The notes under the pieces were generated by a model that was not told where the DNA came from, ran no database searches, and saw only the letters and a list, made by a program, of their open reading frames with translations. A stretch of 63,888 nt of DNA, filler included, from Stramenopiles sp. TOSAG23-3 (Eukaryota), in assembly GCA_900128585.1 (NCBI GenBank). It is 15 parts of 15 records of this genome, joined end to end, with 100 filler letters (N's around TTAATTAATTAA, not from the genome) between each part and the next. Parts side by side here need not be neighbours in the genome. Positions count along the whole stretch, not along the records: positions 21,737 to 27,053 come from LT643556.1; 14 more parts are not named here. One strand, 5' to 3'. The position numbers and the translations under genes were made by a program. Positions 5,341-47,850 of this stretch are shown piece by piece. The stretch's first letter is position 1. Each line of letters opens with the position of its first letter.

Positions 5341-5440
5341 NNNNNNNNNNNNNNNNNNNNNNNNNNNNNNNNNNNNNNNNNNNNTTAATTAATTAANNNN
5401 NNNNNNNNNNNNNNNNNNNNNNNNNNNNNNNNNNNNNNNN
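5341..5440. other. Artificial contig linker (N44-TTAATTAATTAA-N44); also at 10775, 16207, 21637, 27054, 32469, 37879, 43288, 48697, 54092, 59483, 60585, 61687, 62788
   Basis: Identical 100-nt spacer with stops in all six frames; contig lengths fall steadily from 5340 to 5291, then ~1000. Confidence 0.98.
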
Positions 5441-8700: not shown

Positions 8701-9991
8701 TTTGCTGTACGGTGACACGACGCTTATGAAAGCAAAGAAGCTGCGCGACGAGGAAGACCGAATGGAGAAGAGCGACCCAAAGTCCCCTGCAGTGGAACAA
8801 GTCCGACGACGACGCCAGTCGAAAATTGTGAAAGAGACCTACAGCCAGTTGGACGAGTACATGACCATCATGTTGCAAGAGAAAAATGCGATAAACACGG
8901 GAAAGTCCAGCCATGGTCCCGAGGATGCGACAAAGAAGATGGTGGTGAGTACGCCAAAGCCCGCCGGGGAATCGTTCAGTCAGCTCGACCAGTATCTTAG
9001 CGAGCGCCCGTCCAGTGCCCCAGTCATGCAGCCGCTGAACGCGGGGACAAAAATTGGAGGCGGGGGCGATGAAATCCATAAGGAGGAGAAGACGGAGCTG
9101 CAAATTGACGACGACGAAGGGGCGCTCGCGCCCGCTGCCTCCATTGACTTGTCGGAAGTCCCGGAGCCCACGCCTGTTGAACCGTACAAGCGTAAGGAAA
9201 TGACCGTTCAGTCGCTGAGCCGCGTTGGCGGCGGTGGCTGGCTGATTCGAAAGCGCAAGGATAAGGGCGGGGCATGGGACGCTATGTTCCTCACCTTTCG
9301 AGATAAACAGACCGTACTCGCATACATGCCGCTGTCGCTGAAGGGGCAAGTGGAACTGTCTGGAGCTAGGGTGACCGAAGATATCCCAGAGGGTGCCATG
9401 ACAAGGGTTGAGAGGCAAACGAAACCGCACTCGTTCGCCGTCATTGCCCCTACGCTGAAAGGCCCGCTAATCTTGTCGGCGTACGACCAGGGCATGAAGG
9501 AGGAATGGATGCACGCAATCCGCCACGTTATCCAGGTGCAGAGAAAGCTTAAGCGCAAATCGCAATTGGCGAATCGCCGGAAATCGGTGGTGGAAAGTGC
9601 GCTCGCAGACTCGGTCTTGCTCGAGGGTGTCATGGAGAAAAAGTCCATCTCTGCGTCCATGTTTAAAAATTGGAAAACTCGCATTTTCAACCTGCGGTTG
9701 GACACGTTTACTATCGACTACTTTGACGTTTCTTTGTACGATAAGATCGACCCGACGGATGTGTACTGCGCCCCGTCGCTTACTTCGGCACACCAAGAAG
9801 CCGTCAACGACAACATCAACCCCATATGGTTTTTGAACAAGTGCAAGTTTACCTTCAGATGCTTCCTAGGGGACTTGGATGGCCCGGAAGAAGCTCAGAA
9901 AACCATTGCAGAGCTGGGGACCGACTCTGACACCCACAGACAAACGTGGGTCAAGGCGCTGATGAGCGCACACAGGGTGGCTGTGCACTGA
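5779..9991 (+). CDS. Kinesin motor with coiled coil and C-terminal PH domains; frame break at G9 run 8277-8285
   Basis: RVKVAVRCRP, AYGQTGTGKT P-loop, NTTSSRSH, LVDLAGSER, HVPFRDSKLT; second ORF (8255-9991) has PH-like segments (GWLIRK..W..F; EEWMHAI; EGVMEKK..WKTRIF; TWVKAL). Removing one G joins the two ORFs. Confidence 0.88.
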
Positions 9992-10308
9992 ACAGAAATT
10001 TGTGTGTTAATGCTTGAAACAAAGAGCCAAGTGATAGTCTGAAAGCAAATGCTGTGGTGTTAACTTTTAATAAAAACAAATTATATTGTTTGCTTTAATT
10101 ATCCGTTATTTCAATCTTTTCGTAAAACTGAATTGTTTTGATTACATAGAAGTAAAACTTACAAATAAACACAATTACTAAAATAGCAGCCAAATCTTTG
10201 GTTTTAAATTATCTAAATTACGAAAGAAATTAATCAAACATTAAAAACATTGTGAATTTAACTCTTGACTTAGGTTTATTTTAAGTAACAATTATTTTGG
10301 GGGAACCT

Positions 10309-10773
10309 TCACAATTTAATTGACAGCCCGACCGCAATTGAGTGTACTCCGTAATTGACCGAATCCCCACGCTTTGCGTAATCCTCAAGTGTTGCAACTA
10401 GCCCAGGTAACGGGACGACCAAGGTCTGTACAAATTCCCCCTCTTCCAAACTAGTCACCGGATTCATGTTTTCTTCTTTGTCCAAGTCAACAAGGACCGA
10501 TACAATACAAACCTTTTCATCGGTCAGGCCAGGGCTCATGTTCAAAGGGGTGCTTATTCCTGTGACCGTAGCGACATAACCTGTCTCCTCCTTCAACTCA
10601 CGCAATGCTGCCGCATGCGGGGTCTCGTTTGCGTCTATCAAACCGGCCGGGAGCTCTATTGTGTACGCGTTTACTGGTGGACGAAACTGCCTCACCAGCA
10701 ACGTTGATGGCGTACGAAGATCGCCACCCTTTAGCGTAGCAAAAATGGCGACTGCGTCGACGTCGGACGTATC
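10309..10773 (-). CDS. NUDIX hydrolase, ADP-ribose pyrophosphatase (NUDT5/Ysa1-like), 5' truncated
   Basis: QFRPP..IELPAGLID.NE....AALRELKEETGY Nudix box and SPGLTDE; frame open to contig end. Confidence 0.92.
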   Translation of the reverse strand, partial: DTSDVDAVAIFATLKGGDLRTPSTLLVRQFRPPVNAYTIELPAGLIDANETPHAAALRELKEETGYVATVTGISTPLNMSPGLTDEKVCIVSVLVDLDKEENMNPVTSLEEGEFVQTLVVPLPGLVATLEDYAKRGDSVNYGVHSIAVGLSIKL

Positions 10774-11238
10774 GNNNNNNNNNNNNNNNNNNNNNNNNNN
10801 NNNNNNNNNNNNNNNNNNTTAATTAATTAANNNNNNNNNNNNNNNNNNNNNNNNNNNNNNNNNNNNNNNNNNNNAGAAGAAGAATTGAATTGTGAAAAAA
10901 ACAACTCTGCTTTTTTTATCGTTCGTAGTTACAGGTTCAAAATAAGTTTCTTATTTCTACATTTGGATGAAATGAAATAAGGTGAACCCTGACTGTTCGA
11001 AGAGGTATCACCGATAGATAACAGAAAGAGAATCTTTAAAAGAGTTCTATTGCTATTCGTGTACCAAAGTGTGAAGAAACACGGTTCATACAAATTTGTC
11101 TATAAAGACACTGTCGATTCAAACGCCTGTTTGCTTTTGTCGCCAAGACATAACGGTTTCGTCATAAATACGAATAAACTTTAGAGTCGAAGAGACGCGT
11201 TAGAAAATTTACTTTGATATATTATAGGAGATTGAAAC

Positions 11239-16206: not shown

Positions 16207-16380
16207 NNNNNNNNNNNNNNNNNNNNNNNNNNNNNNNNNNNNNNNNNNNNTTAATTAATTAANNNNNNNNNNNNNNNNNNNNNNNNNNNNNNNNNNNNNN
16301 NNNNNNCCCCCCCCGGTCTAGTTTCGTTGTCCGTCCTGTTGTTTATTGTCCTCGCATTGTTTTTGTCCTTGCGGTAGTAA

Positions 16381-20904: not shown

Positions 20905-21558
20905 GTTTTGTTGGTGTAGACTCGACGTTAACAAAAACAATAGCGGTACCTTCAAAAGCGCTCCTTTCTGGTAAATAAAGGCAATACTTTCTTTAGCATT
21001 TACATACTGATTTAAATACAGAAACTTTGTTCAAAAACTTATTTAATCCAACTGAATATATCTAAACATTACCATTATTATACCAAATTACCAAAATAAT
21101 AACGAGAGAGAAGAAGAAGCAGAACGAGGCAGAAGAAGGAAGCAGAAGAACGCAGAATTATTATTATTATTATAATTATTAAATGTACACTAGTCTACTA
21201 GAGCTCTACTAAATATCTATTAAAATAATAAGTATTAATTACATTACATTAGACGACTATTATAAATATAATATACCAACAACAAGCAACAGCAAGGAAA
21301 AACAGAGGGTTTAAAAATATAATAATAATAATAACAACAACAGGCCTTTCCCAAAGGAGGAGGATCAGGTTTGTTGTTTTTTTTCTTTTCGGTATTAATA
21401 CACGGTTCCTTGGTATTTTTCCTGGTATTTTATTACCTGTTTTTTTACCTGTACTTGGTGGTATTATATATATTTAAAATTCTAAAAAAAAAGAAAAAAA
21501 GAAGGAAGAAAGATGATGATCTTTCTTCTCTTTCAAAACAACTACTCTCTTCTTTTTA

Positions 21559-21636
21559 AACAAGAAAATTGGCTGTTATTTAAGTAATTAAAATTAATGT
21601 ACTGCGAACTGAACTCTAAATTTAGACATTCGAGGT
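21559..21636 (+). repeat. Dispersed repeat family A, 5' part, truncated by contig end
   Basis: AACAAGAAAATTGGCTGTTATTTAAGTAATTAAAATTAATGTACTGCGAACTGAA. Confidence 0.85.
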
Positions 21637-21866
21637 NNNNNNNNNNNNNNNNNNNNNNNNNNNNNNNNNNNNNNNNNNNNTTAATTAATTAANNNNNNNN
21701 NNNNNNNNNNNNNNNNNNNNNNNNNNNNNNNNNNNNATGTTCATGTTGATATTGCACAACATATTTTCTTAATAGAGAAATCTTGACCGTTTTAAGAGAT
21801 AATTACGAACGGAAAAAACAGAGCACTTCTTCAGATAAAAATGCATGGCAACAAAGGCATATTTTA

Positions 21867-21924
21867 GTTTAACGGACTTGTCGGTTTAACGGATGTCGGT
21901 TTAACGGCCCTGTCGGTTTAACGG
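21867..21924 (+). repeat. Tandem 14-mer TGTCGGTTTAACGG x3 plus a partial copy
   Basis: Full copies at 21879, 21894 and 21911; GTTTAACGG at 21867. Confidence 0.95.
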
Positions 21925-22112
21925 GCACGGTTGTTCTGCGACGACGACGGTTGGTGTGCTTGGCTGTCTGAGCTGTCCAAACCATGGTGCCGGTATACAG
22001 GAATGGTGTCTTTCGCCACATTGATAAAGGATAGAAAGTTTAAAACTAGTTAGATAGTGAAGTATAGACTTGTTATCCAGAGAATCTTATAAATGAATTT
22101 GATTTTATTAAG

Positions 22113-23774
22113 ATGCCATCCAGAACACCATCATGCCCACGAACCTCGTCAGCACGGCGCGGAAAGAAGCGAACATATAGCAAGTACTTGGGCCCGCAGA
22201 GAAAGAGTTCACCAAGGTTGAGAGAGCGCAGGAAAAAGAATGCTGAGATTGCCCGGGCTCATAGGCAAGCACACCGATCATTAAAAATCTTGATGGAAGA
22301 GGACAACAAATCGATCAAGCGAAAAGACGCAAAGAAACTATTAGGTCGTGGAATCGGAAAATTTGTACGCTCCGCAAAGAAGGTTGCAGAACGAACCAAA
22401 ATAATAGAACCGAAACTATCTGCTATGACAGACGAAATACGCTTGGCTCTAGAACTGCTAAAGCATAGTATCCCTGGATGGAAAACGTTGTGGGAAAAGT
22501 TAGCACATGACGCCGATGATGGCTTTTGTGGAACAATGGACAATGATTCACTTGTAAGAGTTCTGTCGCTGGTGAAGTATACAATTTCCGAGGTTGGTAT
22601 GCTGCCGGAATCAGCATTTTCCGCTGTAGAGTGTGGTTGTGGCGTTTTGTGTTTTGCCAAGGCCATTAGAATAGCTTTACCGCAAGTTCACCTATTTGGG
22701 TTTGAATACAAAAACTATTTCAATAGTGTCTTCTCAGACCTTACGCAATTGGCAGCAGCTGTTCGTGCGCTGAATGAAAAAGTTTCGATTCATTCTGGAA
22801 TTTTATTGAAATCCATCGGCAATTTTGAGTATAACTTTGGTATAGGGTTTAGCGAAGCACTATCGATGCGCAACTTTTTAAAGGATAATGGTGCTAGTAA
22901 AGCTGTCTATTCCTCGCAAAACATGGTTCTATTTGCATTCTGGGAGGGGTGGTCACGTCGAGCCAAAAGAGGATTGGCTCATTGTTGTTCAAAATCATCG
23001 GAAGTGAAAATTATCTTCACTGGAGATCGATCAAAAAAAAGCGATAAAAACACATTTCCAACAGAAGAGAAACTAAAGTTTCTGAATGGCACAAAAAGAG
23101 CATGGATTAATGAGTTTGTTCTATTTCGTAAAATTCCCGTGCATTTAGCTAGTAAAAAAGGTAAAGAAACATTTGATGGATGCATCTTTGTAAGGCGTAG
23201 CCTTTTCGTTCGAAAGTACTCTGTCCTCAAGGTAGTGAGGTCACCCTTACCACCTTCCGCAGATCTGGATTTGTGTAAATGGATGGTGTTGTGGGAACCA
23301 TCTTCCTCAATTTCGTTGAACATTGCCCTGCAGGCAGTGTCACATGATATTTGTATGTCAAGTTCCTGGATATACAGCGGGATGCCAAGTCGATGGCATG
23401 TAATGGCCCACACACACCAATTCGATGAAGAACAGCTGTGTGCATACGTTGAGAGATGCATTGTAAAATATTTGACGTCAAGTTGGTTTGTTTCTGGTGG
23501 ATGTGAAACTGTAAAGAGAAAGCAAGAGGCGCTGTTCGAATTGCAAAACTTGCAATGTTCCCAACCTCGCCAAAAGGAATTACAGAGGAAGTTAAATCGC
23601 ACATTACAAAACAGAGTCGCAACATTGCTCAATCGAAAGTTTACCGGGACATGTTTGCTCCTAAAATCCCAAAGTTTCGGTGCACAATTTGTTGCACCAC
23701 TGGAACGAAAGAAGATATACTGGCGCATGCAGTCAATCAAGATTGCCGCGGGAATTATGACAATATTCAGCTAG
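22113..23774 (+). CDS. Putative class I SAM-dependent methyltransferase-like protein (DOT1-like signature) with basic N-terminus
   Basis: 553 aa; FCGTMD..helix..AVECGCGVL..helix..LFGFEY..VLFAFWEGW parallels DOT1 YGE/FVDLGSGVG/YGVE/VIFVNNF; K/R-rich N-terminus. Confidence 0.55.
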   Translation: MPSRTPSCPRTSSARRGKKRTYSKYLGPQRKSSPRLRERRKKNAEIARAHRQAHRSLKILMEEDNKSIKRKDAKKLLGRGIGKFVRSAKKVAERTKIIEPKLSAMTDEIRLALELLKHSIPGWKTLWEKLAHDADDGFCGTMDNDSLVRVLSLVKYTISEVGMLPESAFSAVECGCGVLCFAKAIRIALPQVHLFGFEYKNYFNSVFSDLTQLAAAVRALNEKVSIHSGILLKSIGNFEYNFGIGFSEALSMRNFLKDNGASKAVYSSQNMVLFAFWEGWSRRAKRGLAHCCSKSSEVKIIFTGDRSKKSDKNTFPTEEKLKFLNGTKRAWINEFVLFRKIPVHLASKKGKETFDGCIFVRRSLFVRKYSVLKVVRSPLPPSADLDLCKWMVLWEPSSSISLNIALQAVSHDICMSSSWIYSGMPSRWHVMAHTHQFDEEQLCAYVERCIVKYLTSSWFVSGGCETVKRKQEALFELQNLQCSQPRQKELQRKLNRTLQNRVATLLNRKFTGTCLLLKSQSFGAQFVAPLERKKIYWRMQSIKIAAGIMTIFS

Positions 23775-26293
23775 CTTCAGCAGACTCGTGTGATTTAGAA
23801 TTCGATGAATCGTCAACAGAGTTGTTGAAGGACATGTTTGTTAATTTTAGTGCAACACTGAGTGCAAAAGACCAACATCTATTTGTCGGTGAAAAGGGCA
23901 AAGAAAATGTTATACGGGAATGTGTTGCAAAAATGGAAGACGCACTAAAAAATTATACAGAATCAAAACGTCAGGTGGAACTACTGAACCGGTGGCGGGC
24001 ACATGTGACAAAACGGCAACAAAACATCCTCAATCGTACTAAAAAGAGACTTGTTGAAACAAGGTTTGTCAACGATACAATTGAAATCGAAATTGGGGAA
24101 GTCCTCTTCCCTGTAAAGATTAGTTCTTTGGAGACAAGATGGGATGGCGAAACGGCCCGCAAAATGCTTGACGATTTTGGTATTCGTGATTGTCTGTGTC
24201 AGATTCCAGGCCTTCGTTTTGATCATGGATTCGTTAAAAAATGTGGAAAGATAATAGAAAAACGAATTGATATGCTGTTCAGACACAAATTTCGAAAACT
24301 ATTGTGGAGAAAGCACGATGGTTTGTATATTGACATTCATGTCGATGGCGCGCCCAGAACGCAGCGTGGGTTGCAAAAAGACCAATTTGTTGTTGTCTTA
24401 CGGCTTTTGAACGAAAATGTCGCTCTGGAACGGTCAATGCTCATTCCTGTGGTAATAGCAAATGTAAAGGAAACCTCAGCGGAAGCGAGGCAAATCTGCA
24501 AGATAATCGGCAAATCCTTGCTGGAATTCCAGAAGAGGGTACGCAAGGATGGGCTTGGCTTGACTGGTCACAAAGACGTCAAATTTGTAGCTGCATCTGA
24601 CCTAAAGGCATTAAATATGTTATTTGGTTTTACAGAGTATACCGGTATATTCCCATATCCAAGTAAAATATTTTCATCGCGTGAAAATTCGGGGTGGGGC
24701 AAAGTTTATGGAAGAAATTCTGACACCCCATTCAAGAACTTTGAAGCTCGAAAGCTTAGCGTAGACGAATTTAAAGCTGAGTTTGAAGCCAGGCGTTCCA
24801 AAATCGGAAAAAAGCTTGAGGAAGAACTGAACACCGCACGCGGAAGGCCATCTCAGTGCAGAAGGCGGTCAAAGGGTTCTGCGTCATCGAAGAAGAAATT
24901 AAAGCGTTCTAAGGCTGCAGCAATTGCTATGCTGGCAGAGACTGACTTACCGCAACCTGTCCAAATGAAACCAGAGATTTTGTTGTATCTGCGAGGCGAG
25001 CTTCAAAAAATTCCTGAAGATGAACGTAGAGATTGGGCAAAGTATTGTGGACTTGGAATCGTTGATCCGTGTCCGATGTTTGGGGAACTGTTGTGGGACA
25101 AATTGGCACTTTGTGCGTTGCACTACAAAACGACAAAAGTACTTGACATATTGAATTTGTGCACACATACGCTTGCAGCGTACGATGAAATTCTGGGTCA
25201 CTCCATTGCTGACACAGACAAGCTTGGGAAGTCATGTAAATTCTTCTTGGAAACTATCAGCAGTTCTCCCAAATTTCGTGGCAAACTGATGGTATATGCA
25301 GAAAAAACAGAGACACTGATTCTAAAAACTGCAGGCGAAGCATCTTTTCGGGCTTTGAACAATGAATCCACAAAGAAACTTGAGGCTTATCTCAAGGGCG
25401 ACGAGTTGTGCTCAAGGCGACTCATCGGAGAACAAGCAAATGTTGTATTGTCTTTTGTCGAGGATTTGCTTGAAGTACTAATAGAAGCGCGCAATCAATC
25501 TTCAAGCAAAGCGATAGGTAAATTTGAAAAGGGGCTGACAGCCACAATCAGTGGTTTATATTGCGTGCTGAATTACTCGCGCGACATTGTTTACATAATG
25601 AGTTTAAGTTGCCACCCACAAAACGAAAGTGAACCCAGGCGAAAAAAGCGGTTGCAGAAAATTGCAAAACGTTATCGGCGTACCGCTGCCAAACTTGAGT
25701 ATGTGCAACAGTTTGTATTCCCAGAATGGTTCCGGCCATACGACCTTACTGTTTCATGCTGTGGTCCAGACATCATGGACGATTTGGTATCAGACGGGTT
25801 TCTTATGGGAGAGGTCGGGTTGTTGGAGGTATTTGAAGCGTACCACCAATTTGTAAAATCATTGCCAGTAATGAAATTTTACTCAAAAACTGATACTCAA
25901 GAATCCGCATGTATGGCGAAGTTAATAAAAACGCTTTTAACAAACATATACGCCGAAGACGTCGATCCACTTCCTTTGAAAGAAGAACGCAAACCATACA
26001 TTCATCCAAAAAGTGGAAAGTTAACAAAGTCAAGGAAAGAATCGCATATTAAAGTTATTCATGAATATGACGGTATTGGTTGTGTTTGTGGAAGAAAAGT
26101 CGCCAATGAAGATTGCGCATATTGCAGCTACGGTGTAGTTTCAGAATTAGACGATCTAGTAAGCAATTGCGCCGATTATCTTCTTTGTGGAACATACTCT
26201 GATGCAGATGTAAAGTCCGTTCACAAGTCAAGAAAGAAATTAGTTCAGTTTACATTTACTAAGGGGCTTGGAGTCTCTAAACATAGGAAATAA
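23555..26293 (+). CDS. RAG1/Transib/Chapaev-like DDE transposase
   Basis: 912 aa; IHVDGA (D264), PVVIANVKET, ASDLKALNMLFG (D349), CALH (H523), RLIGEQAN, RPYDLTVSCCGPDIM, MGEVGLLEVFEAYH (E761); N-terminal CxxC..H..C and C-terminal CxC..CxxC. Confidence 0.72.
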   Translation: MFPTSPKGITEEVKSHITKQSRNIAQSKVYRDMFAPKIPKFRCTICCTTGTKEDILAHAVNQDCRGNYDNIQLASADSCDLEFDESSTELLKDMFVNFSATLSAKDQHLFVGEKGKENVIRECVAKMEDALKNYTESKRQVELLNRWRAHVTKRQQNILNRTKKRLVETRFVNDTIEIEIGEVLFPVKISSLETRWDGETARKMLDDFGIRDCLCQIPGLRFDHGFVKKCGKIIEKRIDMLFRHKFRKLLWRKHDGLYIDIHVDGAPRTQRGLQKDQFVVVLRLLNENVALERSMLIPVVIANVKETSAEARQICKIIGKSLLEFQKRVRKDGLGLTGHKDVKFVAASDLKALNMLFGFTEYTGIFPYPSKIFSSRENSGWGKVYGRNSDTPFKNFEARKLSVDEFKAEFEARRSKIGKKLEEELNTARGRPSQCRRRSKGSASSKKKLKRSKAAAIAMLAETDLPQPVQMKPEILLYLRGELQKIPEDERRDWAKYCGLGIVDPCPMFGELLWDKLALCALHYKTTKVLDILNLCTHTLAAYDEILGHSIADTDKLGKSCKFFLETISSSPKFRGKLMVYAEKTETLILKTAGEASFRALNNESTKKLEAYLKGDELCSRRLIGEQANVVLSFVEDLLEVLIEARNQSSSKAIGKFEKGLTATISGLYCVLNYSRDIVYIMSLSCHPQNESEPRRKKRLQKIAKRYRRTAAKLEYVQQFVFPEWFRPYDLTVSCCGPDIMDDLVSDGFLMGEVGLLEVFEAYHQFVKSLPVMKFYSKTDTQESACMAKLIKTLLTNIYAEDVDPLPLKEERKPYIHPKSGKLTKSRKESHIKVIHEYDGIGCVCGRKVANEDCAYCSYGVVSELDDLVSNCADYLLCGTYSDADVKSVHKSRKKLVQFTFTKGLGVSKHRK

Positions 26294-26416
26294 TATAAAA
26301 AATGGACAATAATGTTAAAACTGTTAATATAATTTGTTTTTTTTTAAACACAAGAAAATTGGCTGTGAAGGAGCTCGGCCTGTGTTTCGGGGCGTACGAC
26401 TTGAAAAATCCACGCA

Positions 26417-27052
26417 CTACCATGTGGATAACTCACGGGGATTGGCATCTTCTTCCCATCGACCATTTGCTTTACGGAAAGTTCGTATTTGAAAGGTCAT
26501 CCATAAATCTAGCGATCGCCTCCTCTTCTTGAGAAACAATTTCACGCCAGAAACGAATCGGTATTTTTGCATCGCTCCGACGTTCTTGGAAAACAGATAC
26601 TTTGCGAATTGCGATTTGCAATATTGCAAAGATACTGCCTTCCAGGTCTTCAGTGTTTCTTTTGGGAGTGTCAGACTGTAGTCCAATGTCTCATTCAGCA
26701 TTTGAATATCGCGATATGACATATGCGTAATACTAACTTCCTCTTGGTAAGCATTAATGTATTGTCCAAAATTATAATGTCGTTTCAGCTCTGTTCCAAA
26801 CCCAGGTAGCAAACCATTCATATGATCGCAAAACTCTGATAATGTATGTGGTTGATCAAATTTTATTCCTGCTCGTAAAATATGTATCTTGCTGCACGGA
26901 GGCCATTCTCGCACTTTTTGTGTCACTGTGTCCGCTGACATATTCTGGTTGGGTTGATTTCTACCAAATATACACGTAAACCTTGCTCGAATATCAATTT
27001 CCATCTGTTGCAAGATCCACACTGCCACTTCGTCTGCTTTTGGTTTCAGTCT
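26417..27052 (-). CDS. Hypothetical protein, 5' truncated, convergent on the transposase
   Basis: Frame open from contig end (~211 codons); no recognised domain. Confidence 0.55.
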   Translation of the reverse strand, partial: RLKPKADEVAVWILQQMEIDIRARFTCIFGRNQPNQNMSADTVTQKVREWPPCSKIHILRAGIKFDQPHTLSEFCDHMNGLLPGFGTELKRHYNFGQYINAYQEEVSITHMSYRDIQMLNETLDYSLTLPKETLKTWKAVSLQYCKSQFAKYLFSKNVGAMQKYRFVSGVKLFLKKRRRSLDLWMTFQIRTFRKANGRWEEDANPRELSTW

Positions 27053-27153
27053 TNNNNNNNNNNNNNNNNNNNNNNNNNNNNNNNNNNNNNNNNNNNNTTA
27101 ATTAATTAANNNNNNNNNNNNNNNNNNNNNNNNNNNNNNNNNNNNNNNNNNNN

Positions 27154-29236
27154 CCTTACGGTCAATCAGCCACGTGTATACCTGGTGTATCATGAAACAG
27201 TATACCAGGACTTCCAGGGCTATCAGCCGCAGCATTGTACTGGGAGTGTACGGCAAAATTTGGTACGTTACAAAGACGGCATTTGGGACGACGGCCCCGG
27301 ATACAATATTCTCCGTCCCAAGCGTAATGACACTAACAAGGGACAATTCCACGTTGTAGATGACAAACTCGTAAAAGACGGCCCTGGTATTGAGGTTTTC
27401 GATCGCTTTGTTTTCCGTTAGTATGCGCAGCACCTCGAATGCTCTGGTTTTATTCTGTGGGTCAAAGTAGTGGGAGAACCCACTGTCGGACCGCAACGTA
27501 GTGGCCTGGCCGGCAAACGAGTTGCCTTCGCGTGTCTCGTGCGTCAACTTCAAATCTTCACCCACCACCCATATATCTGACGGCCGAGAGCCGGTCGCTT
27601 TTTCATCCGCGTAGCAAGGGACCTGAATATCATCCGTGTTCAAAACACCAGTGCTGTATATGGGAGAGCAGCCCTTACTTGATGATGGAAACTGCCGCAC
27701 TACCCTTAGCCTGAGCTTCCCGATCAATTTGTTGTACCCTCTAATTTTTCGTTTTACGAAATTTCGTTCAATCTTGTTTGTAGTGCTATTGACGAAGTCA
27801 TACGGGATCGGATCTGGGTAGAACTCTTTCAGAAGCACATTCTTGCTCCACAGGCCCCACTCCTCCAGCGATTCCATATCAAAATATGCTTCTGTATTGT
27901 GCTCGTCGTATTCTTGGTAAACCAATGCCTGCTTTAGCCCGACCTCAAACGAGCCAACTTTGCGGCTCATTTTCCAGCTTATGTTAATGGCATATGTGGT
28001 CATGATGAGGGTAAAAATAAAGTGATAAAACCACCTCACCAAGCGTTTGGGTTTTACGAGGGAGTTCCACTCCGTGGTCACGGATAACATTGTCCTCGGG
28101 TCTTGGAAGATCTCACTGTCGAAGCCTTCCTCTACTGGGTTCTGAAAAATCTCCTTCATATCTTGGTAATTCTGAACGTACCAACGCTGTCGCGCTGAAA
28201 TTCCAAATGCAACCTGGCCATGGTGATCTCTATTTTGAAGGGCGACCAATTTTGCTTCTTCATCTCCGTAGGAGGTCAGCAGTAGGCGAATAAGCTCATT
28301 TTGCGCTTCCACTTTCGTGTGGGCCGTTTTCAGCAGTATCTTGTTTTGCATGTCCACGTGCAGACAACCCATGAACTTGTCGAAGTCGGCTCGTTCCCCC
28401 TCCTCGTAGATAATTGGCATGCCCATTCCATGAGATTTTACGACATGGCTGATGTCAGCCATCAGTGCGTGGCCATTTCCATCCTTATCTATCATTTCGA
28501 AAGAATGGCGCAGATAAAACAAGCGGGAGCTAGACGTCCCCATGACTTCGGCTTCAATGCCATCGATGCTTTCGATTGCCGCATGCAGCGCCGTTCGACC
28601 GTAGTGATCCTCTAAGTCATGGTTTACACCCGTGTTCAAGAGCAGCCTGACGATAGCAATGTTTTGAAAAATCGAAGCCAAATGTAGGGCCGTTCGCCCT
28701 TCTTCATCTGTTAGCGAGGCGTTTGCGTTGTACCGCAAGAGGAGTTCCAGGCACTTTATATGACCGAACCGAGAGGCGTAGTGCACGGGCCTTTGGCCAA
28801 AACCATAATAGCTGCTCCAGTTGACATCTGCACCGTGCATGACAACATTTTCCACCAATTCATAGTGCTTGTCTTTATCGGGAATCAGCAAGGCCAACAC
28901 AAGGATTTTGTCAAGGGTGCTCTGGGCTATATGGGGGGACTCAATGAGTATCATAAATTCTGTAATATGGTTCTCGTTCAGCACCGGCAAACCTTTGTCG
29001 ACGTCCGTGGTATAAGCTTTTTCCACACCACGCAAAACCTCATAGAGATGCGCCACGTTGTCAAGTTTTTCACCATGATGATCATCATCTGCGTGTTTGG
29101 AGCGTATATCAACAAGCGAGTGAGAACGTTTGCGATCAGCACGTTTCCGCTCCGGCGAGGTTGCACGCAAGGGGTTTTCTGTGGCGCCACCCAAGGGGTT
29201 TCCTACCAACTCCGTGCCCTTCGCGAACGAAGTCAT
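27154..29236 (-). CDS. Ankyrin-repeat and EF-hand protein with polycystin-2 (TRPP)-like channel N-terminus, 3' truncated
   Basis: GQRPVHYA, GRTALHLA, GRTALHAA ankyrins; DKDGNGH EF-hand; TM1 followed by TOP-domain motifs NKLIGKLRLRVVR, TRAVFYEFVIYN, E...SGAVVP; then TM2. Confidence 0.8.
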
Positions 29237-29861
29237 TTTTGCGGTTGTGGAAGAAAGGGAAAACACGTAGAATTCACCACTTCTCCGTTTCGCTAACAAA
29301 GTGTTAAGTTGGTGCAATGTTATGTTTGCACCAAATAAATTAATCTGTAAATACATCAACGACTGAATTACTACTTATGTAATAAACATATTCGAATAGT
29401 CACTAAAAATATTCTGGCTCCCCTTGGGAGGGTGATGATGATGAATGATGATTCTCCCTCCTTCCTTCTCTTCTCTCTTCTCTCTTCTTCTCTCAGCTGC
29501 GCGTTATAACGACAACAGTAGTTCCTTCTTTTTTCCATACTTCCCTTTCTGTTCCTTCGTTAGGTCTATGTACCAGGTATTATACATGTTGTTTCCCTTT
29601 TCAATTGGAAACACTTCGTATCATTAATAGAAACCCATGTTATTTATTCCAGTGGATAATGATTATAGAAGATAATAGTGTACATTGATTAATGACTGGT
29701 GTTCCGGAAATTCTACACGGAGCATCAAGTATTGCCTTTCACAAATATCATCCTATATAATACTATACTATTAAAAACATAAGTACAGCTGTAGTAATTC
29801 GTACGGCAACTTATTTTAAAAAATGACGATTTTAGATTAAGGAGGATAGAATAGCTTTAAT

Positions 29862-39333: not shown

Positions 39334-39417
39334 TAGTTTCTTATGACTTCTGAAATTTCCAGTTTATCCTTCCTTGCAATGTAAGTTGTTTCCTAAGAAT
39401 TTAAAAAACAAAATTAA

Positions 39418-39675
39418 AAACAAGAAAATTGGCTGTTATTAAAGTAAAACAACAGCCAATTTTCTTGTTTCTATTAAAGTAATTAAAATTAATGTACTGC
39501 GAACTGAAATCTAGATTTAGGACATTCTAGGTTTGCATTCCTTCATGAACTGCGAACTTAACTATCATACGGCTGTTATTTTCTTTATTAATTCTTTTCT
39601 TATCGATTTAAAACCAAAACATAATTCTTATACTTTGTACCACATGATATGTAATGAAATAACAGCCAATTTTCT
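39418..39675. repeat. Dispersed repeat family A, composite copy with 20-bp perfect inverted repeat (39418-39437/39451-39470)
   Basis: AAACAAGAAAATTGGCTGTT-13 nt-AACAGCCAATTTTCTTGTTT, then the family A body, then another inverted core at 39658. Confidence 0.9.
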
Positions 39676-39860
39676 AATGATTATGTCATATGACGATAAG
39701 CTATTATTTTACTTTTCGTAAGAATTAATAGATAATATGGTGAGTAAAGTTAAAAGATTCATACTTTACAAGAGTTCTTAGTTTTAAGCTCTTGGCATTA
39801 ACACACCCAGCGGCGTGTGACTTTTTTCAGCGCGAGCCCTTAACACCGCAGCGGGCGTAT

Positions 39861-46982: not shown

Positions 46983-47214
46983 GGGCCGTTTTGTGAGCCG
47001 CGTTGGTAAGTTAAGATCAATCAAGAAGTAGATCCTGAGCCATCACAGCAATAGACACGGAAACCATGGCTGTGTGAGTGCGCTTACAGAAGATTGGTGG
47101 CGCTTTTATAAAACAAGAAAATTGGCTGTTATTTTATAGTAATTAAAATATATAAAAAGAAAAAAGAAGGTGTCAGTTCAAGAACAATATCTCCTCCTAT
47201 TGCAGATCCTCCCC

Positions 47215-47356
47215 NNNNNNNNNNNNNNNNNNNNNNNNNNNNNNNNNNNNNNNNNNNNNNNNNNNNNNNNNNNNNNNNNNNNNNNNNNNNNNNNNNNNNN
47301 NNNNNNNNNNNNNNNNNNNNNNNNNNNNNNNNNNNNNNNNNNNNNNNNNNNNNNNN
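47215..47356. other. Genuine scaffold gap (N run without linker)
   Basis: 142 N with no TTAATTAATTAA; flanked by repeat sequence. Confidence 0.9.
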
Positions 47357-47490: not shown

Positions 47491-47850
47491 TCAGAGACTT
47501 TCATTGGGAATTAAATCGATTTGTTGTGTACAGATCACCTTTAACAACAACTAAACGAAATTAAAAAATCCATTTTAGGTTTAGCAAATTATATATAATT
47601 AGTGTTTTTTTATAGTATGCTTTTTAAGACTCTCATTTTATGAAAAACCAAAATATCTCATTTTATATCAATTACGATTTCAGTTCCAACCTCGTAGTCC
47701 TATCTTGATGGTACACTATATAATATTTTTTTTTAAACTTCTAGATGATTTCAGTTCGCAGTAGTACATTAATTTTAAAATTACTTAAATAACAGCCAAT
47801 TTTCTTGTTTTTAATATTAAAGAAATAACAGCCAATTTTCTTGTTTTTAA
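47491..47850. repeat. Family B copy 2 (tail inverted), followed by reverse family A copy and a duplicated core
   Basis: 47491-47570 matches 33430-33535; 47585-47710 is the reverse complement of 33543-33636; AATAACAGCCAATTTTCTTGTTT at 47788 and 47824. Confidence 0.85.

Follow-up and report, generated by a model that had tools for sequence, protein, structure and literature searches.

The genome assembly of Stramenopiles sp. TOSAG23-3 (GenBank GCA_900128585.1) contains, on contig LT643556.1, a gene for a protein of 1408 residues in which a domain with a predicted methyltransferase fold precedes a region of about 900 residues that may be a transposase or nuclease. We examined this gene within a stretch of 63,888 nucleotides (nt), here called the window, in which the locus appears as two open reading frames (ORFs) on the plus strand. 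ORF1 (22113..23774) encodes 553 residues, has an in-frame stop 17 codons upstream of its ATG, and carries the sequence strings quoted in an initial annotation of this DNA, with E173 at nt 22629 as stated there; ORF2 (23555..26293, 912 residues) lies in another frame and, as assembled, overlaps ORF1 by 220 nt. The initial annotation had interpreted this arrangement as a two-gene module, in which a DOT1-like methyltransferase gene lies upstream of, and overlaps, the gene of a RAG1-like transposase. Our analyses show that the adjacency of the two parts is genuine, that their overlap is not, and that the two are halves of one fused gene.

One gene, interrupted by an omission in the assembly

The best match to ORF1, P0001, is a protein of 1408 residues and 99% identity. 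It spans residues 1-467 of ORF1, with 2 differences from the window's gene, and after residue 467 (GGCETV, nt 23513) it has 16 residues that are missing from the window before it continues in the frame of ORF2 to the end. P0002 (1419 residues), P0003 (1989 residues), P0008 (1459 residues) and the frame at metagenome locus L001 (1431 residues) likewise run uninterrupted across the junction and conserve the extra segment, and all five full-length relatives are single continuous frames. A gap of 46 bases was predicted first, and then tested by placing public contigs on the gene's contig. In run X1, the likely source run, one contig of 8339 nt at a depth of 301 has exactly 46 extra letters between 23513 and 23514, and loose ends of contigs from run X2 (another small run from this organism) and from the marine metatranscriptome X20 read at 23513 into the same insert. 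The short form present in the window was not found in any run covering 23513/23514. The true gene is a single frame of 1408 codons from which the assembly omitted 46 bases; the frameshift, the overlap between ORF1 and ORF2 and the last 86 codons of ORF1 are consequently products of assembly.

As assembled, the window does display two overlapping frames, as a two-gene transposon module with separate genes for a methyltransferase and a RAG1-like transposase would; given that contigs of X1, X2 and X20 contain the frame-fusing bases, and that every full-length relative is a single frame, we regard such a module as extremely improbable. The practical lesson is that an omission of 46 bases from an assembly was sufficient to create the appearance of a module of overlapping genes. 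Metatranscriptome contigs match 23155-23305 and 23376-23513 without differences, the second of them entering the 46-base insert, and this exact match to an RNA library is a hint that the gene is expressed.

The window is a chain of small contigs, and not one stretch of a chromosome. A scan along its whole length found 14 pairs of 44-N runs, with 12 bases between the members of each pair; these 12 bases are TTAATTAATTAA at both of the linkers that flank the gene's contig (the two that were read), and this is a linker with stops in all frames, used for chaining unplaced contigs. Genes past the linkers (patatin, EF-hand, ankyrin/polycystin) lie on other contigs and are therefore uninformative about this gene. 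Within the contig, a convergent ORF (ORF3) follows the gene and is matched exactly at 26723-26948 by an RNA-library contig. ORF3 matched no family, and no PDB entry by sequence or profile; it has no similarity to the convergent ORF of L001, and hence there is no conserved second gene. An Rfam search of the whole window gave no match. Elsewhere in the window, ORFs that reach a linker are cut by it, for example 27098..29359 on the minus strand, which contains a run of X, and a single run of 142 N at 47215-47356 lies within a contig and, in contrast to the linkers with their paired 44-N runs, is a normal gap of the assembly.

A sparse family with two conserved domains

Comparison of ORF1 with 1.84 billion cluster representatives using phmmer produced 10 matches at E ≤ 1e-3, among which 7 were at E ≤ 1e-10 and 5 at E ≤ 1e-30. 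The best non-identical matches (E of 9.7e-89, 1.6e-73 and 2.1e-69) are far beyond chance and identify ORF1 as real coding sequence. Word-based protein searches with ORF1, ORF2 and the C-terminal alignment returned no match, or P0001 alone, and no relative was found among viral contigs (two scans), prokaryote genome contigs, phage records or plasmid records. The family comprises two deep branches, approximately 23-27% identical to one another. Compared with P0001, the methyltransferase domain is 46, 42, 27 and 27% identical in P0002, P0003, P0008 and L001 respectively, and the putative nuclease core is 46, 52, 30 and 32% identical; the former is thus conserved as strongly as the latter, which argues for a working domain. 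The initial annotation had proposed testing whether homologues are repeatedly next to the transposase, and all five full-length relatives do carry both parts.

The remaining two of the three metagenome loci are truncated N-terminal pieces only. At L002 the family copy (9290-10549), which lies among ordinary genes on a eukaryotic metagenome contig of 71 kb, breaks off at strand 4 of the methyltransferase fold; L003 diverges past strand 7. The L002 copy has an extra N-terminal Cys/His motif in addition to the first half of the fold, and its neighbours include a Methyltransf_16 lysine methyltransferase (Pfam, 3.7e-14) and, by eye, ORFs resembling a phosphopantetheinyl transferase and an EF-hand/centrin protein. 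In the branch containing P0008, L001 (at about nt 700-870) and L003, a Cys/His-rich insert (C..C...H.C..CG) is found between methyltransferase strands 3 and 4. Residues 1-640 of P0003 are unrelated to the family and comprise a fragment of a Ulp1-type (C48) protease, proline/valine-rich repeats and a thioredoxin domain; this upstream extension is probably a neighbouring gene merged into the gene model. Ulp1 proteases are frequent passengers of DNA transposons.

Residues ~100-365 very probably adopt the fold of a class I methyltransferase dependent on S-adenosylmethionine (SAM), as judged from a predicted structure. The AlphaFold2 model of the N-terminal domain was made from an alignment of 11 rows and has a mean predicted local distance difference test score (pLDDT) of 68.7 and a predicted template modelling score of 0.58, with pLDDT of 80-93 across most of residues 141-360 (block means 66-93). 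Strands at residues 169-174, 193-198, 238-242, 270-276, 298-306, 335-345 and 353-361 alternate with helices in the model, which thereby has the seven-stranded sheet, the helices and the hairpin of strands 6 and 7 by which the class is recognised. The motif I of the class, (D/E)xGxGxG, ends strand 1 but lacks its third glycine, and E198 ends strand 2, where an acidic residue binds the ribose of SAM. The initial annotation had pointed to both motif I and this acidic residue, and E173, G175 and the acidic position are conserved in 11 of 11 sequences; the very basic N-terminus that it described is also apparent, the first 100 residues having 33 Lys and Arg against 8 Asp and Glu.

A Foldseek search of the PDB with the model produced 236 matches at E ≤ 1e-3, and the best 45 of these 236 are all proteins of the SAM-methyltransferase fold. 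Human DOT1L occupies ranks 1-12 (best E 2.7e-6), the highest target-normalised TM-score of any DOT1 row, 0.56, belongs to trypanosome DOT1A, and non-DOT1 methyltransferases begin at E 4.8e-5; DOT1 accounts for 27 of the best 45 rows, a count that is inflated by the many DOT1L-inhibitor entries. A second aligner, VIA-align, also placed DOT1 enzymes first, with methyltransferases of ribosomal RNA, transfer RNA and DNA bases scoring slightly lower. As the initial annotation had suggested, then, a Rossmann fold is predicted, and with both aligners the model lies nearest to DOT1 among methyltransferases, such that a DOT1-like subtype is moderately supported. Searches by sequence gave a different picture. 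Pfam matched neither ORF1 (E ≤ 1), nor 5 relatives (E ≤ 5), nor 8 N-domain sequences (E ≤ 10), and these Pfam searches detected no DNA-methyltransferase family or target-recognition domain; NCBIfam returned a single sub-threshold methyltransferase match, to L002 alone (E 0.05); PHROGs and PADLOC likewise placed the domain in no family, with isolated weak matches only; and sequence and profile searches of the PDB with the N-domain at E ≤ 10 returned no DOT1 chain and nothing meaningful. The domain does not belong to the DOT1 sequence family of Pfam. It would presumably bind SAM and may be catalytic.

For the C-terminal half we compared two alignments, A4 (five diverse sequences) and A5 (7 rows), and residues are given in ORF2 numbering. 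D264, D349, E753, E761, C-A-L-H and two Cys/His clusters are present in 5 of 5 sequences of A4 and 7 of 7 of A5. The two Asp are 85 residues apart, both in hydrophobic stretches, and the block containing E753 and E761 is the most conserved of the whole protein (61/57/32/30% identity); eleven further acidic positions are also invariant. We take the pattern of Asp, Asp, a long region and Glu-x6-Lys to fit an RNase-H-like Asp/Asp/Glu (DDE) core with a large insertion, and the order of motifs (hVDG, D.KA,.ALH., G..A. helix, P[DE]I[IM].....DG..hG...E......K) recalls, by eye, the RAG1 core. On this conservation pattern, the C-terminal ~900 residues would be a DDE-type (RNase-H-like) transposase or nuclease.

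Database searches placed this half in no group. Pfam gave no consistent family for the whole proteins, the alignment members or core fragments of the window and L001 copies; NCBIfam gave no family match; PHROGs and PADLOC gave isolated weak matches only, with no consistent family; and no PDB match was obtained at E ≤ 10 with single sequences or three profiles. RAG1, RAG1-like and Transib chains were not matched by sequence or profile in the PDB searches, nor RAG1 in Pfam, so the sequence searches gave no link to Transib transposases or the RAG1 core. Assignment to hAT or MULE transposases is disfavoured: in these the second Asp is followed at 15-45 residues by a (C/D)xxH motif (PMC5499845), and the spacing here counts against them, since C-A-L-H lies 171 residues past D349, or ~119 in the P0008/L001 branch, which is without ~52 of the columns.

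Table 1. Coordinates of the features described in the text, as positions in the window.
Feature	Position	Strand	Remarks
Linkers (N44 + 12 bases + N44, 100 bases)	5341-5440, 10775-10874, 16207-16306, 21637-21736, 27054-27153 and nine more		
Contig with the gene	21737..27053		5.3 kb; sole real context of the gene
Tandem array, 3.6 copies of a 16-17-nt unit, core GTCGGTTTAACGG	21867..21924	+	190-245 nt upstream of the ATG
N-terminal half of the real gene, codons 1-467	22113..23513	+	99% identity to P0001 1-467
Lys/Arg-rich N-terminus	22113..22409	+	Modelled as a long helix, low confidence
Predicted class I SAM-methyltransferase-fold domain, DOT1-like	22410..23207	+	Residues ~100-365; from model, fold matches and motifs
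C-G-T (G140, T141)	22527..22535	+	Kept in 10/10 covering sequences; loop before the helix leading to strand 1
Motif I, ECGCGVL	22629..22649	+	E173 (nt 22629) and G175 in 11/11; position 177 is G in 8, S in 3
E198, end of strand 2	22704..22706	+	Acidic (E or D) in 11/11
FWEGW, directly after strand 4	22938..22952	+	F-W-E in 7/7 covering sequences; candidate catalytic or substrate motif
Helical region that follows the methyltransferase fold	23208..23513	+	Conserved G-x-P-S-x-[WY]-H
Omission site	23513..23514	+	46 bases absent; they encode 16 residues, QGILKLRSSVSGLSYE, and restore one frame
False ORF1 tail, 86 codons	23514..23774	+	Wrong frame over the start of the C-terminal half
C-terminal half, true frame	23516..26293	+	'ORF2' starts at internal Met 23555; stop codon ends at 26293
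C2HC zinc-finger-like motif, CxxC-x11-H-x5-C	23681..23746	+	C43, C46 and H58 invariant in A4; C64 also in A5
D264 in HVDGAPR	24344..24346	+	Invariant; candidate first catalytic Asp
D349 in AASDLKAL	24599..24601	+	Invariant; candidate second catalytic Asp
Lys/Arg-rich variable insert	24752..24949	+	19 K+R in 66 residues; mostly absent (~52-column gap) from the P0008/L001 branch
C-A-L-H	25112..25123	+	C520, L522 and H523 invariant
E753 ... E761-x2-H764-x3-K768	25811..25858	+	Candidates for the third catalytic residue
C-terminal Cys cluster, CxC-x8-CxxC	26081..26125	+	All four Cys invariant
Dispersed-motif copy	26334..26366	+	Begins 41 nt past the stop codon; host-wide repeat, not gene-specific
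Convergent ORF3	26417..27053	-	At least 203 residues; continues to the contig end
AAACAAGAAAATTGGCTGT copies	26346-26366, 21556-21576, 39416-39436, 39452-39472, 39662-39682, 47109-47129, 47792-47812, 47828-47848		

Proposed mechanism and its alternatives

We consider it probable, if by no means certain, that the 553-residue ORF is the N-terminal part of a methyltransferase/transposase-like fusion of ~1408 residues that acts in the following manner. The protein would be ordered as a Lys/Arg-rich N-terminus, the methyltransferase domain, a helical region, the C2HC zinc finger and a ~900-residue Asp-Asp-Glu region with a terminal Cys4 cluster. In the scheme that we infer for DNA binding, DDE chemistry, SAM binding, catalysis, substrate and mobility, the half with the zinc finger and nuclease would bring the protein to specific DNA, namely the ends of its own element if this is still mobile, and would cut and join DNA there if the acidic triad is what it seems. 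The tethered methyltransferase, behind its basic N-terminal arm, would use SAM to methylate a substrate within reach, and in this way cutting or integration would go together with the placing of a local mark or with targeting guided by nucleosomes. Such a mark could protect the element against silencing, attract repair to the site of excision, or steer integration into particular chromatin. DOT1 methylates lysine 79 of histone H3 (H3K79) on nucleosomes, and because DOT1 acts on nucleosomes and is ranked first by two aligners, we would tentatively name a nucleosomal histone lysine as the likeliest single substrate; DNA, whose amino-methylation is the main alternative, or the protein itself is less likely. 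A bolder version of the scheme seems to us rather improbable: that the gene belongs to a cut-and-paste transposon family, still active, in which the transposase comes with a DOT1-type histone methyltransferase of its own, writing an H3K79-like mark at donor or target nucleosomes or reading nucleosomes to choose its targets, and thereby manipulating or exploiting a control of transposons based on H3K79 methylation as reported for brown algae (stramenopiles), with the transposase half representing a new superfamily that is possibly a distant relative of RAG1 and Transib.

Several observations weigh against the proposed fusion enzyme. The methyltransferase call comes from one medium-confidence model and short motifs, with no sequence-family match; motif I (GCGVL) is without its third glycine; FWEGW after strand 4 is unlike the Asn-containing motif of DOT1; and a profile comparison with the Methyltransf_16 lysine methyltransferase beside L002 aligns motif I alone, at 10.6% probability. 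The C-terminal half, similarly, matches no known family or solved structure by sequence, the P0008/L001 branch has Phe in place of the Glu of GEQAN, and C-A-L-H is remote from the second Asp. As regards mobility, there are no terminal inverted repeats above chance across 21738-27053 (the X1 contig being ~3 kb longer), and no second copy of the gene in the window; depth over the gene in metagenome X3 (about 0.4-3.3 in covered bins, with several bins uncovered) is not above that of the flanks, stretches of the gene that lack cover in X3 or X20 being no sign that they are missing there; and one of the eight amino-acid differences of P0001 (G594S) is also a variant in X3, and P0001 therefore looks like a population variant rather than a paralogue. 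Finally, the RNA-library contigs may come from contaminating DNA.

A DDE element would be recognised by multiple copies, terminal repeats and target-site duplications, none of which was found, the data being thin and a low-copy element possible. RAG1/Transib elements have terminal inverted repeats starting with CAC and 5-bp target duplications, and no CAC-type terminal repeats were seen in the contig, which at 5.3 kb is probably too short to reach the ends of an element. One 16-nt inverted pair (21755-21770 and 26352-26367, 81% identity) was discarded, being no better than 16 other pairs at chance level. Upstream of the gene, the tandem array of GTCGGTTTAACGG could represent a promoter element, subterminal repeats or the end of an element; no inverted copies of its unit occur in the window, and the X1 assembly graph branches just upstream of it, after 21815, into an alternative continuation that is absent from the window. 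The layout of the array resembles subterminal transposase-binding repeats, such as those of Muta1 (PMC5499845). At the 3' end, the gene bears a copy of a dispersed motif, AAACAAGAAAATTGGCTGT, that has 8 matches in the window where 0 are expected, and very high depth in run X1. The copies checked are located just 3' of ORFs or between convergent ORFs, and two inverted copies at 39418-39470 form a perfect 20-bp hairpin (-26 kcal/mol, z -8.0); a 3'-end or terminator-like element is one possible identity of the motif, and a miniature repeat of the genome another.

The gene might instead be a domesticated, single-copy host gene of a few marine protist lineages, transposase-derived at most and immobile, using DNA binding together with methylation in chromatin regulation or repair, for which SETMAR is the precedent (PMC8704517). 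We think this somewhat unlikely. It would account for the one copy in the window, the one contig for the gene in run X1, the metagenome depth like that of the flanks, the apparently allelic status of P0001, the synonymous third-position changes that make up 3 of the 4 variants of the gene in X3, and the lack of terminal inverted repeats in the contig; the 3' motif shared with other genes of the genome also counts against mobility. Against a host gene, and for mobility, stand the very sparse and patchy distribution of the family (10 matches in 1.84 billion representatives) across two deep branches, and the truncated pieces at two of three metagenome loci, which are the decayed copies expected of mobile DNA; the absence of the family from viral, prokaryote, phage and plasmid collections, and the upstream array with the branch in the X1 graph, may be listed on the same side. 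The candidate catalytic Asp/Asp/Glu residues are, moreover, all kept, and a contig too short for element ends, where that of X1 extends ~3 kb further, diminishes the weight of missing repeats. We rank a low-copy or recently active element above a domesticated host gene, though not by much.

Other alternatives concern the activity of either half. It is unlikely, in our estimation, that the methyltransferase fold is catalytically dead and serves only as a module for binding nucleosomes, nucleic acid or SAM as a signal, as some methyltransferase-like domains of retrotransposons may do. The missing third glycine of motif I, a post-strand-4 motif unlike those of known enzymes and the want of a sequence-family match might suggest this, and the methyltransferase domain of DIRS1 elements has been judged inactive (PMC4738411); dead domains usually lose exactly those residues that hold SAM, and here E173, G175, the acidic residue after strand 2 and F-W-E are kept in every covering sequence, across branches that are ~27% identical. 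A slightly better, still doubtful, case can be made for a C-terminal region that is some other zinc-dependent nuclease, or protein binding DNA or RNA, in which event the protein would be a targeted methyltransferase with no connection to mobile DNA; sequence searches matched no transposase family or structure and no element ends were found, but the two invariant Asp 85 residues apart and the invariant Glu-x6-Lys block fit the pattern of DDE transposases, zinc clusters occur at both ends, and truncated copies are present in other genomes. Much the same standing, doubtful but credible, belongs to an enzyme of identical architecture that methylates DNA (N6-adenine or N4-cytosine) and thereby marks the element or its target. 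The acidic-aromatic motif W-E-G-W after strand 4 sits where amino-methyltransferases carry (D/N/S)PP(Y/F/W), and base methyltransferases of ribosomal RNA, transfer RNA and DNA score only slightly below DOT1; transposon-borne DNA methyltransferases have been described (PMC12477816, PMC3627910, PMC5890265), and a marking role has been proposed for the ParB-methyltransferase accessory proteins of algal transposons. Set against this are the first rank of DOT1 in both structural searches and the failure to detect any DNA-methyltransferase family or target-recognition domain.

The fusion among known systems

Mobile elements usually receive chromatin marks rather than write them. With a DOT1-like methyltransferase permanently attached, a transposase-like enzyme would be naturally equipped to 'cut and mark', and the pairing could link the movement of DNA to the marking of chromatin. 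Neither half is recognised by sequence searches of Pfam or the PDB, and as defined by sequence the family adds a new subgroup of methyltransferases and, probably, a new group of nucleases or transposases; the architecture, putatively a mobile-element enzyme with an epigenetic writer, is thus built of two domains that are each new at the level of sequence families. In brown algae, dimethylated H3K79 (H3K79me2) is associated with intact transposons (PMC12477816), and DOT1 genes there have multiplied and acquired new domain partners (PMC13076208); if a marine protist has a DOT1-like enzyme carried by a mobile element, this would bear directly on the origin of the brown-algal H3K79me2 system. Searches of article texts brought up SETMAR, DNA methyltransferases borne by transposons and expansions of DOT1, but no account of this architecture and none of a DOT1-like domain joined to a DNA transposase; the domain architectures of the brown-algal DOT1 subfamilies in Extended Data Fig. 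1 of PMC13076208 may include a related fusion.

DOT1 and DOT1L, including trypanosome DOT1A and the bacterial protein of PDB 9ne1, are the best structural matches and have the class I SAM-methyltransferase fold in common with the predicted domain. Further apparent points in common with DOT1 are motif I in its acidic-x-G-x-G form, an acidic residue following strand 2, and a conserved loop with glycine that precedes the helix leading to strand 1. The domain described here differs in having no Pfam DOT1 or PDB sequence match, in FWEGW where DOT1 has an Asn-containing motif, in the Cys-rich insert within the fold of the P0008/L001/L003 branch, and in its fusion to a ~900-residue region with a zinc finger and Asp/Asp/Glu residues, which was not found reported for DOT1 in the literature searched. 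A DOT1-like enzyme of Legionella has been described in a preprint (10.64898/2026.01.11.698932), and PDB 9ne1 is probably a protein of this kind.

Comparison with RAG1 and Transib reveals no sequence match, and the ~900-residue region is longer than typical Transib transposases. Methyltransferases are carried by several transposons, including the ParB-methyltransferase of algal Sola1 and other elements, that of a giant-virus mariner, and the DNA methyltransferases of retrotransposons (PMC12477816, PMC3627910, PMC5890265). In common with the present family, as we interpret it, such elements carry a methyltransferase of their own, proposed to modify their own DNA or chromatin. Theirs are separate accessory genes, with the exception of the methyltransferase-like domain of DIRS1 (PMC4738411), and belong to families of DNA or RNA base methyltransferases that are recognisable by sequence; none in the available excerpts is DOT1-like, or fused to an enzyme of the cut-and-paste type.

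The sole well-known parallel is SETMAR (Metnase), a primate-specific accident with a different fold, in which a SET lysine methyltransferase is joined to a mariner transposase in anthropoid primates, and the transposase part supplies DNA binding (PMC8704517). A protein methyltransferase and a DNA transposase domain in one polypeptide would be common to both. SETMAR combines the SET fold with a Tc1/mariner domain, whereas the present protein combines a predicted Rossmann, DOT1-like fold with a half that belongs to no known family; and where SETMAR arose by capture of an element beside a host gene, and is now a single domesticated host gene, the fusion described here is ancestral to a whole small family, in which the candidate catalytic acids are intact.

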